Source of the DNA: Bacillota bacterium
Lineage (GTDB): Bacteria > Bacillota > Limnochordia > DTU087
Reading direction: 5' to 3'
DNA length: 64,000 nt
Assembly (NCBI GenBank): GCA_012519025.1
Contig: JAAYQZ010000052.1
Location: 341 to 64,340 of the forward strand
Position numbers and translations under genes: made by a program. Positions within the stretch are counted from its first letter, which is position 1. The number at the start of each line of letters is the position of its first letter. The notes beneath the pieces are model-generated. The model saw only the letters and a program-made list of their open reading frames with translations. It made no database searches and was not told the origin of the DNA. Shown piece by piece: positions 33,225-37,361 of the stretch.

Positions 33225-34715
33225 GTGGGAATCTTTTGGAAAGAAATCGCTATAGGTACTGGCTTAGCCTTGACTATTGCTTTAGGGTTGTGGGGAATAA
33301 ATATCACCCCTGTAGCTATTTTGGCAAGCTTGGCGATTTTGTTGTACCTGATTGTGGATGGACGTCTTGCAAAAGATGGCAAACTTGAGACAGTAGCATT
33401 GGATGGGGCAAATTCCGGTGAGATGAAAGTCGGTTTTGATGATATCGGTGGGCAAGAGTCCGCTAAACGTGAACTGTTGGAGGCTTTGGAGTTTGTAAAC
33501 AATCGGGAAAATTGCCGAAAACTCGGTATAAGACCTTTAAGGGGCATTTTGATGGTTGGCCCTCCAGGAACAGGTAAGACACTTTTAGCTAAAGCCGCTG
33601 CCAGTTTTACCGATGCGGTTTTCATAGCTACCAGCGGTTCATCATTTATAGAGATGTATGCCGGTGTTGGAGCCCAGCGCGTGCGCAGGTTGTTCAATAA
33701 AGCCCGACAAGCGGCAATTCAACAAGGAAAAAAGAGCGCACTTATTTTCATCGATGAAATTGAGGTGATGGGCGGCAAAAGGGGCCGCCACAGCAGCCAC
33801 CTTGAATATGATCAAACATTGAATCAACTGTTGGTGGAGATGGACGGGATCAACGGGGATGTTGAGCCCAGTATATTGGTTGTTGGCGCCACAAACCGGC
33901 CTGATCTGCTGGATCAAGCCTTAATTCGCCCCGGGCGTTTTGATCGGATAGTGCGGGTGGATTTACCGGATAAGGCCGGCAGGCTGCATATTCTTAATAT
34001 CCACGCCCGCAACAAGCCTCTCGCGTCTGACGTTGATCTTAGAAAGATTGCACAAGAGTCGTTTGGCTTTTCCGGAGCCCATTTGGAAAGCCTGCTTAAC
34101 GAGGCCGCTATCCACGCGCTGAGGCGCAAGAGCAGGAAAATTGAAAACGAAGATATGCGGGAGGCGATGGAAAAGATCATGCTTGGTGAGCGTCAAGATC
34201 GCAAGCCTTCCACAGAAGAGCGCCGACGTGTTGCTTATCATGAAACCGGTCACGCATTGGTAAGTGAGAGTCTGCGGACAGGTTCGGTTTCTTCGATAAC
34301 AGTCACCCCCCGGGGGCAAGCCTTAGGGTACATGCGCCAGGCCCCTGATGGCGATCACTACATTTACACTAAAGAACAGCTGCTTGATCAGATTGCCATC
34401 GCTTTAGGCGGTGCCGTCATGGAAGAAATGATCTTCGGCAGCCGCAGCACCGGGTCGCAAGATGACTTCCAAAAGGCTTGTGAGCTGGCAGAAAGACTCA
34501 TATACAGCGGTATATCATCATTGGGAATTGTCAGCAAAGAGCATGTAGGGGCAAGTGAGGTTGATCAGGAAGTACGCTCAATAATCAAACAGCAGGAAGA
34601 ACGGGTACTGCAGCTTTTACAAAATGCTGAAAAGGTTATCGACTCTTTAGTTAAAGAACTGCTTTACCACGAAAAACTTGATGGAAATCGATTTAGAGAG
34701 TTAATGGCCGGTTAA
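33225..34715 (+). CDS. FtsH-like AAA+ zinc metalloprotease paralogue lacking the extracytoplasmic domain
   Basis: GPPGTGKT, FIDE, TLNQLLVEMDG, RPGRFDR and HETGH motifs; short N-terminal TM hairpin. Confidence 0.9.
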   Translation: MGIFWKEIAIGTGLALTIALGLWGINITPVAILASLAILLYLIVDGRLAKDGKLETVALDGANSGEMKVGFDDIGGQESAKRELLEALEFVNNRENCRKLGIRPLRGILMVGPPGTGKTLLAKAAASFTDAVFIATSGSSFIEMYAGVGAQRVRRLFNKARQAAIQQGKKSALIFIDEIEVMGGKRGRHSSHLEYDQTLNQLLVEMDGINGDVEPSILVVGATNRPDLLDQALIRPGRFDRIVRVDLPDKAGRLHILNIHARNKPLASDVDLRKIAQESFGFSGAHLESLLNEAAIHALRRKSRKIENEDMREAMEKIMLGERQDRKPSTEERRRVAYHETGHALVSESLRTGSVSSITVTPRGQALGYMRQAPDGDHYIYTKEQLLDQIAIALGGAVMEEMIFGSRSTGSQDDFQKACELAERLIYSGISSLGIVSKEHVGASEVDQEVRSIIKQQEERVLQLLQNAEKVIDSLVKELLYHEKLDGNRFRELMAG

Positions 34716-34755
34716 GTCGCAATTTTACCCCCAATCATTTGTATTTCTTCCATGG

Positions 34756-34784
34756 TTGACTGTTCGTCTTGAGAATGTGATAAT
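34756..34784 (+). promoter_or_regulatory. sigmaA promoter of rrf2, overlapped by an inverted repeat
   Basis: TTGACT-17nt-GATAAT with TG extension. Confidence 0.65.
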
Positions 34785-34864
34785 AGTAACAAACGTAGTG
34801 TGTTACTTATCACAATCATGTTGCGTCAATTAATATGACGTTGATATAAACGGGAAGGGGGTGA

Positions 34865-34910
34865 AGCGGCTTAGCTGTGCGTTGTTAAGTGTGCGCGGCT
34901 TAAAGTCGCT
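34865..34910 (+). promoter_or_regulatory. Stem-loop between the SD and ATG of rrf2
   Basis: AGCGGCTT/AAGTCGCT outer stem and AGCTGTGCG/TGCGCGGCT inner stem. Confidence 0.7.
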
Positions 34911-34916
34911 AATCTC

Positions 34917-35357
34917 ATGGAAATAACTAAAAAGGCTGAGTATGCTGTAACTATTTTGATCGATCTGGCCACTCAACCGGAAGATTGTTATGTTACAGCA
35001 CGGGAAATTGCAGATAGACAGGGTATACCAAGAACATTCGTGCCACAGATCATTTCAATTTTAAGTAAAGCAGGTTGGGTAGAGGGGATGCGGGGTCCCG
35101 GTGGTGGTGTCCGCGCTATCACAGATCTCCATGAACTCTCAGTACTGGACATTATCGAGACCGTAGAGGGCCCCATTGCTATTACCCGATGTTTAATGGA
35201 TGATACTCCGCCATGCGAGAATCGTCCTCACTGTCCGTTAAGAGGAGTATGGATCAGGGCCCAAGATGCTATGCTTGAGGTTTTGAAAGGAACTACAGTT
35301 GTTGAATTGGTGGAAATTAAGCAGCAGCTTGTCAGCCAAACTAAGATTACAGCCTAG
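34917..35357 (+). CDS. Rrf2 family regulator with three Fe-S-type cysteines
   Basis: MEITKKAEYA, RGPGGG, IIETVEG and C-x7-C-x5-C. Confidence 0.93.
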   Translation: MEITKKAEYAVTILIDLATQPEDCYVTAREIADRQGIPRTFVPQIISILSKAGWVEGMRGPGGGVRAITDLHELSVLDIIETVEGPIAITRCLMDDTPPCENRPHCPLRGVWIRAQDAMLEVLKGTTVVELVEIKQQLVSQTKITA

Positions 35358-35548
35358 TGAAACTTTGTGCGACTCTTGTAGATGGAGCATTTGCCCTCCC
35401 GCCAATATATGCATAAGTCACAGCGGCTATCGTCATCGTCTACACTACTATTGAGCCAAGATATGCCGTATCCTTGAGCATCTGAGACAGGTGTATACTC
35501 AGAGCAGTGGGATGCGATGCGGTACAGCTTAACTGCTTCATTGCTCAT
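35354..35548 (-). CDS. Small 4-Cys hypothetical protein, 64 aa
   Basis: Strong GGAGGTG RBS; IASHCSEY...CDLC..W...KC. Confidence 0.75.
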   Translation of the reverse strand: MSNEAVKLYRIASHCSEYTPVSDAQGYGISWLNSSVDDDDSRCDLCIYWREGKCSIYKSRTKFH

Positions 35549-35647
35549 CTGGGCTCACCTCCAAACCTAATAATATTTTACCCAAAGACGATAAAAATAC
35601 CCTTTCATCGAAACTCGATGTAAGGGTATTCCGCAAAAGTATGTTCT

Positions 35648-35821
35648 TCAGTCTTCCTGCCATAGGGAAGCAAATTTAGGCAGCGGCTTCTTCCTAAAGT
35701 CAAAGGCAAGCCTGCGTTTGGCTTTGTAACATAATACTCCTTGGTTGTGGTAGCCGCCAAAAAATTCACAAGTCAGACAGCGACTTGGGCTGATTTGTAT
35801 ACCCCGCTTAGGACAGGTCAT
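35648..35821 (-). CDS. Small 4-Cys basic hypothetical protein, 57 aa
   Basis: GGGGGTG RBS before ATG 35821; MTCPKR...CLTC...LC. Confidence 0.65.
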   Translation of the reverse strand: MTCPKRGIQISPSRCLTCEFFGGYHNQGVLCYKAKRRLAFDFRKKPLPKFASLWQED

Positions 35822-35935
35822 ATTGAACACCCCCCAGACGGTTGCAGCAATTTTGTGTAAAGATATTGCATGATTACAAAGTATAGGGACATCTATCACC
35901 CACCTATGTGTTGATTTGTCCCGTGAACCTTCTGT

Positions 35936-35963
35936 ATTATATCACTGCCTTTTACAGAGTCAA
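35936..35963 (-). promoter_or_regulatory. sigmaA promoter for the small Cys-protein genes
   Basis: Minus strand TTGACT-16nt-TATAAT with TG extension. Confidence 0.65.
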
Positions 35964-36072
35964 GCTCAAAGGGATTTCCAATGGTTCCGGAATCATAGAG
36001 GACATATAAAATGTGTAAAGAATTAAGCGATACAGAGCGTTTTATTGATTAATTTCTCTGTTTTGGAGGTGA

Positions 36073-36104
36073 AAGGTCGTATAACATCGAAATGGTGCGA
36101 CCTT
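36073..36104 (+). promoter_or_regulatory. Stem-loop between the SD and ATG of cinA
   Basis: AAGGTCGTAT/GTGCGACCTT stem plus CAT/ATG closing a CGAA loop. Confidence 0.75.
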
Positions 36105-36107
36105 AAA

Positions 36108-37361
36108 ATGATTGCAGAACTGATTATGGTGGGCACAGAACTGCTTTTGGGGGAAATTGTCGACACAAATTCCAACTACCTCGCTGAAGAGCTGGCGGCC
36201 ATTGGAGTTGATCTTTTTTATGTGACTAAAGTTGGGGATAACCAACAGCGAATTGCAAGGCTCATCCAAAACGCTTTTACAAGAGCTGACATAGTCATCA
36301 CTTCAGGAGGTCTTGGCCCTACCTCAGATGATTTGACCAAAGAGGCTGCCGCAGAAGCCCTTGGCCGGGATTTGGTGCTTTGCCCCAAGGCTTTAAAATC
36401 AATCGAAGCCCGCTTTCAACGCATGCATGCGGCAATGTCACAAAATAATAAACGCCAGGCCTATCTGCCTGAAGGTTCCCAAGCGCTGCACAACCCCAAG
36501 GGAACTGCCCCCGGTGTGCTTGTGGAGACGCAAGATGGGAAAGCACTGATTATGCTCCCTGGCGTACCGGTTGAGCTTAAGGCAATTATGCGAGATTCGG
36601 TAATACCATACATCGCAAACAAGGCTGCAGGAGCCAATGGGATCATTTTTTCGCAAATCCTCAGATTCTATGGTCTTGGTGAATCTAGGCTGGAGGAGCT
36701 TATCAAAGATTTGTTGGTGACACAAAGCAACCCCACTATCGCGCCTTATGCCGGCAGTGGTGAGGTGAGAGTGCGGATCACGGCTAAAGCCGATACTCAA
36801 GAAACAGCTGAAAGTCTTATTGCCCCTGTAGAAAAGGAATTGCTGGGGCGGATCGGCGAGTATTTCTATGGTTATGGAGAGGCAGGAATGGAAACAGTGG
36901 TGGGCAACCTGCTGATCAACAAAGGACAGACAATCGCAGTAGCGGAATCTTGTACCGGTGGATTGATTTCAAATTTGTTGACTAATGTACCGGGCAGTTC
37001 AGATTATTACATGCAGGGAGCCGTTACCTACAGCAACTTGGCTAAAGAAACGGTTTTGGGGGTGGATCCCCGTCTGATCGAAGACTATGGGGCGGTCAGT
37101 GAACAAACTGCCAAAGCTATGGCTTTAGGGGTAAGACAGTGGGCCGGCACTGATATAGGGCTTGGTATTACAGGGATAGCAGGACCCGGAGGCGGAACAT
37201 CCGCAAAGCCTGTGGGGTTAGTATATTTCAGTTTAAGTTCATCGGAAAAAGAAATTGTAGACAAACGGGTGTTCAGCGGCGATCGTCTGCAAATAAAGGA
37301 GCGAGCCGCTTTGGCAGCATTGGATCTGGTGCGGCGGCATCTGCTTTCACTGGGCAATTAG
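36108..37361 (+). CDS. cinA: Competence/damage-inducible protein CinA (MoCF domain + PncC)
   Basis: AELIMVGTELLLG, GGLGPT.DDLT, LPGVP.E, AESCTGG and TGIAGP motifs. Confidence 0.96.
   Translation: MIAELIMVGTELLLGEIVDTNSNYLAEELAAIGVDLFYVTKVGDNQQRIARLIQNAFTRADIVITSGGLGPTSDDLTKEAAAEALGRDLVLCPKALKSIEARFQRMHAAMSQNNKRQAYLPEGSQALHNPKGTAPGVLVETQDGKALIMLPGVPVELKAIMRDSVIPYIANKAAGANGIIFSQILRFYGLGESRLEELIKDLLVTQSNPTIAPYAGSGEVRVRITAKADTQETAESLIAPVEKELLGRIGEYFYGYGEAGMETVVGNLLINKGQTIAVAESCTGGLISNLLTNVPGSSDYYMQGAVTYSNLAKETVLGVDPRLIEDYGAVSEQTAKAMALGVRQWAGTDIGLGITGIAGPGGGTSAKPVGLVYFSLSSSEKEIVDKRVFSGDRLQIKERAALAALDLVRRHLLSLGN

Follow-up and report, generated by a model that had tools for sequence, protein, structure and literature searches.

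A probable hairpin-bridged ribosome binding site upstream of rrf2 in an uncultured family of Bacillota

Split ribosome binding sites are, to our knowledge, a textbook oddity that has so far been known mainly from two genes of phage T4. The translation initiation regions of these genes, 38 and 25, were reportedly described as split (noncontiguous) by Nivinskas et al. in 1999 and by Malys and Nivinskas in 2009. According to PMC3014915, an intervening hairpin shortens the spacer of gene 38 from 22 to 5 nucleotides (nt) and that of gene 25 from 27 to 11 nt, and mutations that destabilise the stem lower initiation at these genes. The same source describes the split structure in close T-even phages only and as absent from distant ones. 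According to PMC3936740 and PMC7297116, the hairpins in the noncontiguous initiation regions of Escherichia coli thrS and rpmE are located upstream of the Shine-Dalgarno (SD) sequence, between it and an enhancer that is AU-rich or single-stranded, and they serve as the operator for an autoregulatory protein. In the present study, we examined the leader of rrf2, a gene encoding a regulator of the Rrf2 superfamily, in a 64,000-nt stretch of the genome of a Bacillota bacterium (contig JAAYQZ010000052.1 of assembly GCA_012519025.1); this whole stretch is referred to as the window. Judging from the sequence, the ribosome binding site of the rrf2 messenger RNA (mRNA) is probably "split" and bridged by a hairpin, like those of T4 genes 25 and 38, and most likely constitutive.

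The anatomy of the leader was observed directly, and a base-by-base check returned the SD, hairpin, AATCTC and ATG at the positions given for them in an earlier note on this DNA. The distal SD, GGGAAGGGGGTGA (34852–34864, + strand), with the core AAGGGGGTGA at 34855–34864, has an SD score of 29, the top of the set scored, and is kept in all 12 leaders of the family described below. Between this core and the rrf2 ATG at 34917 lie 52 nt (34865–34916), which comprise a bridging hairpin of 46 nt (34865–34910, + strand) and a single-stranded tail, AATCTC (34911–34916, + strand). The tail measures 7 nt if counted from the conserved GCGGC...GYYGC stem, like that of all 12 leaders. In the hairpin, AGCGGC...GUCGCU, a 2-nt bulge separates a first stem of 8 pairs from a second of 10 pairs, which is closed by an 8-nt loop; its outer stem, GCGGCU/AGUCGC, is conserved, and its inner stem is variable yet paired. 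In a scan for SD-like runs, none with a score of at least 11 turned up at 3–13 nt from any candidate start of the rrf2 open reading frame (ORF), in agreement with the earlier statement that the sole strong SD is the distal one. The segment 34850–34930 folds at -28.2 kcal/mol, compared with a mean of -20.1 kcal/mol for shuffled sequences (z = -3.15), and none of the 200 shuffles was as stable, so the folding check proposed in the note came out positive. The note had also pointed to a 21-codon ORF with one cysteine codon that runs from GTG 34861 to TAA 34926, and this ORF does exist in the window. A CTG at 34875 is in frame with rrf2 and immediately follows a TAG at 34872–34874.

The start of rrf2 is correctly placed at ATG 34917, because the TIGR00738 model aligns residue 1 of the protein to profile position 1 and because the orthologues share their N-terminus: all begin with M/V-x-(I/V/L)-T-K/R-K-x-E-Y-A, and the protein of the window begins with MEITKKAEYA. 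The coding sequence (34917–35357, + strand) specifies 146 amino acids, which score 115.3 bits against TIGR00738, with a cut-off of 73.3 bits, and residues C92, C100 and C106 are invariant. Under the equivalog models of IscR, CymR, NsrR and RirA, the protein was found to be under the cut-off in each case, so that it is assigned at the level of the superfamily only.

Of 41 related genomes searched, 40 encode the Rrf2 protein, and the family of the window is represented by 12 genomes from six genera; their leaders are labelled L001 (the window) to L012, and their Rrf2 proteins are 60–78% identical. All 12 leaders exhibit the same layout, namely an SD, a linker of 3–6 nt, a hairpin of 39–45 nt, exactly 7 nt and the start codon, and all 12 have a distant SD without a proximal one. 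The distal SD is GGAAGGGGG or GGGAGGGGGG in each of them, the linker is 4 nt long in nine of the 12, and the start codon is GTG in 11 and ATG in the window. The hairpins start with GCGGC and finish with G(U/C)(C/U)GC. The sequence of the inner stem depends on the genus, and its pairing is kept in each. The hairpin lengths of the 12 leaders are 44, 45, 43, 41, 40, 43, 45, 39, 45, 45, 44 and 45 nt; as they differ by non-multiples of three, the segment is not coding. A metagenome scan gave just five further leaders of the family type, which are near-identical to genomes already in the set.

With regard to the orthologues outside the family, a homologous G-rich SD (GGGGGCGG, GGAGG and similar) adjoins the rrf2 start, the leader is short and there is no hairpin. 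Each leader was classed as bridged (a hairpin-bridged SD without a canonical one), canonical, weak proximal or unplaced. All 12 family genomes were bridged, with no leader in the remaining three classes, and all 11 genomes from other families of the class were canonical, with none bridged, weak or unplaced. The five metagenome contigs with at least 60% identity were all bridged, none being canonical, weak or unplaced, and the 44 with 42–59% identity comprised 29 canonical, 14 weak and one unplaced leader and no bridged one. In the genome_contigs set, which overlaps the 41 related genomes searched, the 12 sequences with at least 60% identity gave 11 bridged leaders and one unplaced (none canonical or weak), and the 55 with 42–59% identity gave 42 canonical and 13 weak (none bridged or unplaced). 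No hairpin-split rrf2 was found among these 11 + 44 + 55 orthologues beyond the family. Given that the outside orthologues have an SD adjacent to the start, the rrf2 hairpin would have been inserted at the root of the family, into a spacer between SD and start that was until then an ordinary one.

The pairing of the hairpin was then assessed across the family with a covariance model built from five leaders of equal hairpin length, to which all 12 were realigned. Of the 156 cells of this alignment, 88.5% were paired, compared with 78.3% in column shuffles, none of 500 of which reached the native value; after the partners had been slid by 1–3 columns, 34–50% of the cells were paired. Changes on both sides were seen in six of 14 pairs, and the covariation score of 0.351 exceeded that of the shuffles (0.213, with 0 of 500 reaching it) and that of the slid alignments (0.11 or lower). 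The native hairpins also proved more stable than the mean of inter-genus half-chimeras in 12 of 12 cases. The check for covariation in orthologues that the note had suggested thus shows that pairing was kept by compensatory changes. G-U pairs occur in the conserved outer stem (eight of 12 leaders at one pair), which argues for an RNA structure on this strand rather than a DNA palindrome. The rrf2 leader combines the three features by which a T4-type split ribosome binding site can be recognised at the sequence level: the SD is remote, with none close to the start, a predicted hairpin bridges the gap, and the conservation is restricted to the clade and compensated.

The layout is not confined to rrf2. 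The note had reported the same design at cinA, 1.2 kb away, and this was borne out: the distal SD GGAGGTGA (36065–36072, + strand), read from the sequence, is followed by a hairpin of 32 nt and -12.2 kcal/mol (36073–36104, + strand), by AAA and by ATG 36108. The cinA coding sequence (36108–37361, + strand) begins at this ATG (MIAELIMVGT) and not at TTG 36045 of the ORF list. This start is supported by PRK00549, to which residues 1–413 align at positions 1–412, and in-frame stops occur 3–9 nt before the start in L004, L006, L009 and L010. Eight of the 11 family loci passed a strict filter for the cinA layout, and the remaining three show it by eye.

A genome-wide scan was carried out on the assembly of the window, in which a simple codon-usage caller yielded 2144 ORFs taken as genes. 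The SD spacing of this genome peaks at 7–8 nt. An SD score of at least 13 was reached by 1909 ORFs; the other 235 (~11%) have no canonical SD, and at these a strong distal SD could be paired with a candidate start in 103 instances. A correctly placed hairpin bridged 16 of these 103 pairs (15.5%), compared with 7.4% of the starts that have a strong canonical SD (16 of 216) and 6.4% of the decoys (95 of 1494), the decoys being triplets inside genes. The geometry is thus enriched at SD-less genes relative to decoys (Fisher p = 0.0014), and the genome-wide scan suggested in the note came out in favour of the design. When the hairpin was forced 9 nt further from the SD, one SD-less pair, nine canonical-SD starts and 84 decoys remained. 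Tails of 5–8 nt were present in 13 of the 16 bridged SD-less pairs and in 45 of the 95 bridged decoys, and the mean SD score of the bridged pairs was 22.1 for SD-less genes and 17.1 for both canonical-SD starts and decoys. In addition, the decoys had longer and less clean hairpins than the SD-less genes. This signal was seen only when the scan was restricted to SD-less genes with positional controls: a first, loose scan, with 562 hits among 14718 candidate starts and 215 among 9056 decoys, performed no better than its decoys, and the filters left 62 hits compared with 68 among the 9056 decoys.

Several of the hits recur in orthologues. In ilvD, seven of seven family loci are bridged without a canonical SD, and the seven outgroup loci comprise five canonical ones and one bridged. 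In ddl, 11 of 12 family loci are bridged, the twelfth showing the same layout plus a chance SD-like run, and 13 of 14 outgroup loci are canonical with none bridged. In apt, the figures are 11 of 11 bridged in the family and 14 of 14 canonical in the outgroups. The grpE gene is bridged in five of five other genera, with a tail, GCUUUUC, of exactly 7 nt, and the family loci of floA (five of five), a dapL-type (LL-diaminopimelate-type) aminotransferase (four of five), uppP (three of five) and an aldehyde dehydrogenase (two of four) were bridged as well. The N-termini of the proteins encoded by ilvD, ddl, apt, uppP, grpE and floA, and those of the aminotransferase and the aldehyde dehydrogenase, match their families. 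Across genes, the common geometry is a strong SD, a linker of 3–4 nt, a G-C clamped hairpin of 20–61 nt and a tail of 5–8 nt; the cleanest hairpins are those of grpE and floA. Because the same architecture is found at ~10–15 other genes, it would represent a general, most likely constitutive, design of the initiation region in this lineage.

Some of these loci deserve separate mention. The bridged ilvD outgroup locus (L209) belongs to a genome of a sister family of the same order, and its split ribosome binding site has a hairpin that resembles those of the family, so the ilvD insertion may predate the family. At the apt loci L258–L263, from three other genera, an ATG is located 5–6 nt after the SD, in frame, and the frame is open through the hairpin; it is broken in the genus of the window and in one other genus. 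The grpE (contig C57) and ilvD (C140) loci and their orthologues have U-rich tails (GCUUUUC, CUUUCU, GUUUUU), and their hairpins also resemble weak intrinsic terminators located between SD and start.

We infer that, at rrf2, the 30S subunit would pair with the strong distal SD while the hairpin of 39–46 nt would remain folded and protrude from the mRNA path. The linker of 3–6 nt and the tail of 7 nt would then separate the SD from the start by an effective spacing of ~10–13 nt (9–11 nt in the window), and ATG 34917 would thereby be placed in the P site. The unusually strong SDs may compensate for this long effective spacing. As to its origin, a palindromic sequence may have been inserted into an ordinary SD-start spacer in an ancestor of this uncultured Bacillota family. 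Selection would subsequently have kept the hairpin folded, since without folding the SD would be left ~50 nt away from the start.

Several observations weigh against a bridged ribosome binding site at rrf2. With regard to the geometry, the effective spacing, to which the width of the helix end has to be added, exceeds the optimum of 7–8 nt in this genome. The minimum-energy fold of the window RNA also pairs GGGGU (34858–34862) with AUCUC (34912–34916), and the SD core is unpaired with a probability of just 0.2, being mostly paired with the tail; this extension was found in the leader of the window only and is absent from the other 11 family leaders. In the whole-leader folds of L005, L006 and L008, an alternative wins in which the 3' arm pairs with the GUGGCU of the start, and the outer stem has a probability above 0.5 in 10 of 12 leaders in local context and in only seven of 12 whole-leader folds. 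The inner stem is unevenly supported: with the inner part shuffled, z was -1.8 or lower in eight of the 12 leaders and weaker than -1.5 in four, and 20 of 108 single chimeras matched the native stability. The alignment that shows the covariation was itself fitted to the structure by the covariance model, and plain MAFFT with RNAalifold on the 12 leaders recovered the outer stem only, the inner stems being misaligned. The kinship of the 12 genomes, five of which come from one genus, inflates the independence of the counts. The genome-wide excess is modest (16 observed, ~6.6 expected) and comes from a crude ORF caller. In an outgroup of the same class (one genome, 760 kb, 72 SD-less ORFs) there was no excess, with four of 32 pairs bridged compared with 114 of 699 decoys, a comparison that is a single sample and also depends on a crude gene caller. 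The in-frame ATG of apt in three genera would allow a 16-residue N-terminal extension. Finally, the transcript start of rrf2, given below, is a prediction only, and the RNA contigs of two metatranscriptome runs cover 35051–35581 and a 28-nt piece at 34772–34799, leaving 34800–35050 uncovered.

A broader proposal builds on the recurrence described above. In this family of uncultured Bacillota from anaerobic digesters, split ribosome binding sites could form an old, lineage-wide initiation layer at 10–20 unrelated genes, among them rrf2, cinA, ilvD, ddl, apt, grpE, floA, dapL and uppP. These genes would have a single strict geometry in common (a strong SD, 3–4 nt, a GC-clamped hairpin, 5–8 nt and the start), which would be read, and perhaps co-regulated, through a lineage-specific property of the initiation machinery or a hairpin-dependent factor such as a helicase, and the set would thus behave as a translational regulon. 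We consider this proposal rather unlikely. In a search for a ribosomal correlate, bS21 and an S1-like protein were each present in all of the 27 genomes (no S1-like protein exceeded the cut-off), the family being the same as the outgroups in this respect.

It is unlikely, if not implausible, that the same architecture acts as a switch. The hairpin would then compete with alternative pairings, in which the SD is bound by the 5' arm or by the tail, or the start codon by the 3' arm, and translation would be toggled as the RNA folds during transcription or through temperature, a helicase or a trans-acting factor. Consistent with such a switch, the minimum-energy fold pairs the 3' arm AG(C/U)CGC with the GUGGCU at the start in L005, L006, L008 and L009; the SD pairs with the 5' arm in L008 and L009 and with the tail in the window, and the hairpin dominates in only seven of 12 whole-leader folds. 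In eight of the 12 leaders, moreover, the start is GUG GCN, a near-repeat of the GCGGCU of the 5' arm. Nevertheless, the alternative pairings vary by genus, and the pairing with the start codon is absent from the genus of the window, in which the start reads AUG or GUG GAA; we rate the switch lower because the alternatives are not common to this genus. The loops and internal loops are unconserved and offer no apparent ligand pocket, and no Rfam family matched at E-values up to 10 across 34600–36200. The hairpins of different genes have no common sequence and the genes no common function, and the stability of the hairpins, -10 to -27 kcal/mol at 37 °C, speaks against physiological melting. The earlier note had proposed a structure-dependent initiation that is switched on by folding; the hairpin-shortened spacer is supported by the computations, whereas a regulated switch is not, as nothing shows regulation. 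A thermometer or riboswitch platform that sequesters the SD was rejected too: the conserved helices exclude both SD and start, there is no Rfam match, and the SD pairs with the tail in the window only. A thermosensor was set aside, the hairpins being stable and grpE being among the genes.

The possibility that the distal SD is not used at all appears more doubtful still. Translation would then start at ATG 34917 independently of an SD, and the G-rich box and the hairpin would serve mRNA stability, protein binding or transcription pausing. Such starts are plausible in a genome in which 235 of 2144 ORFs have no canonical SD, the tail of rrf2 is A/U-rich and unpaired in most leaders, and the effective spacing is above the optimum. 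However, the G-rich box is the homologue of what serves as the SD in the outgroup orthologues, and although the hairpin varies in length, the linker stays at 3–6 nt and the tail at exactly 7 nt. At unrelated genes, too, the box strongly matches the anti-SD (22.1 compared with 17.1 for decoys), and shifting the hairpin by 9 nt removes the signal, with one hit instead of 16. An unused distal SD would leave these four points unexplained.

It is very improbable that the hairpins are mobile or repetitive palindromes, of the repetitive extragenic palindromic (REP) or miniature inverted-repeat transposable element (MITE) type, or terminators that are present by accident and play no role in initiation. 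An insertion origin is likely, as the outgroups have no hairpin, and the tails of ilvD and grpE are U-rich. Nevertheless, none of the 17 bridging hairpins has a second full copy in the genome, with only two chance-level matches of 14 and 17 nt, and no sequence likeness was found among the hairpins of different genes, so that multiple copies, as expected of a REP-like or MITE-like repeat, were not seen. Each hairpin is instead kept at its locus across genera in a fixed geometry. A terminator scan, which tested for a G+C-rich stem and a U tract, called none at 34865–34916, and the rrf2 tails of the family (UAAUCUC, AGACCAU, UGAAUUU and similar) have no U tract; an intrinsic terminator or attenuator was rejected on this basis, and a terminator between SD and start codon would abolish expression of the gene. 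Least credible of all is an SD that serves an upstream frame, either by coupling or reinitiation from the 21-codon ORF or by an extended Rrf2 from CTG 34875, the start that the note had itself named as a refuting alternative: both frames are present in the window and the stop of the small ORF at 34926 overlaps the start region of rrf2, but GTG 34861 is itself part of the SD (spacing -1), the 21-codon ORF and the in-frame CTG occur only in the genome of the window, an ATG, GTG or TTG 3–14 nt from the SD is found in just two of 12 leaders (TTG at 13 nt, L003 and L006), in-frame near-cognate starts exist only in L001 (CTG 34875) and L007 (ATA), in-frame stops lie between SD and start in L001, L004, L011 and L012, and the hairpin lengths differ by non-multiples of three. 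Leader-peptide coupling was likewise rejected, no conserved upstream ORF at a working SD distance having been found.

With regard to the surroundings of the leader, a strong sigma-A type promoter of rrf2 is predicted at 34756–34784 (+ strand), with TTGACT, 17 nt and TGtGATAAT, i.e. an extended -10 box with the TG present and 10 of 12 matches. The -10 box and the adjoining AGTAACAAA are conserved across the family leaders. Transcription would start at ~34791, which would give a leader of ~125 nt containing the SD and the hairpin. An imperfect inverted repeat, GTGATAAtaGTAACA ... TGTTACTTATCAC, of the GTAACA ... TGTTAC type (34777–34813) overlaps the -10 box and the predicted start site. Repeats of the form TAACA-N-TGTTA or ATAAC-N6-GTTAT are found at the same position in family and outgroup rrf2 orthologues and follow the -10 box in distant ones. 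The repeat at 34777–34813 is probably the operator of Rrf2 itself, which would point to autoregulation.

The upstream neighbour of rrf2 (33225–34715, + strand) encodes an FtsH-like AAA protease of 496 amino acids. It matches the FtsH model from profile position 152 only, with 453 bits compared with a cut-off of 600 bits, and resembles a short paralogue without the usual N-terminal region. The 750-nt "spacer" between rrf2 and cinA contains two small ORFs on the minus strand. The first (35354–35548), of 64 amino acids, overlaps the rrf2 stop by 4 nt, and the second (35648–35899) is a cysteine-rich frame of 83 amino acids, of which residues 24–78 are conserved. Both are present in 11 of 11 other family loci with 55–84% identity (tblastn), and a Pfam search with the two returned nothing over the threshold. 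A strong minus-strand promoter is predicted at 35963–35936.

The mechanism proposed here is familiar; its scale, the size of the hairpins, their age and the chromosomal setting are not. Our literature search, the scope of which left subscription journals mostly outside, returned the cases of T4, thrS, rpmE and rpsA and no lineage-wide set in cellular genomes. The same principle would here operate with hairpins that are 2–3 times longer, on ordinary chromosomal genes, and compensatory changes would have preserved it ever since the family arose. If true, this would show what amount of folded RNA the 30S subunit tolerates between its P site and the SD. A class of starts would also be defined that gene finders and calculators of ribosome binding sites score as SD-less or misplace, as in the case of cinA, which was extended to an upstream TTG. 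The family would in addition provide naturally occurring constructs, replicated across its phylogeny, with which the geometry of initiation could be tested. From an evolutionary point of view, the question arises why one lineage gathered such insertions and its neighbours did not.

Compared with known systems, the rrf2 leader resembles RNA thermometers and the expression platforms of riboswitches in having a conserved structure at the ribosome binding site. It differs from hairpins that mask the SD, since the SD and start of rrf2 lie outside the conserved helix and folding should help initiation. As in thrS and rpmE, where a folded hairpin is thought to be accommodated in the binding region of the ribosome without unfolding, the structure would not need to be opened; in contrast to the hairpins of these two genes, that of rrf2 separates the SD from the start codon, and nothing points to a binding protein. 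The closest resemblance is to T4 genes 38 and 25: the SD is linearly too far away, the hairpin would shorten the spacing (at rrf2 from ~50–58 to ~10–13 nt), and the arrangement is conserved within a clade and missing in distant relatives, hence a derived state. In contrast to T4, the genes are chromosomal and belong to an uncultured Bacillota family, and the hairpins are much longer (39–46 nt at rrf2 and 20–61 nt at other genes). Across six genera, moreover, the geometry is retained at some ten genes with unrelated housekeeping or regulatory roles.

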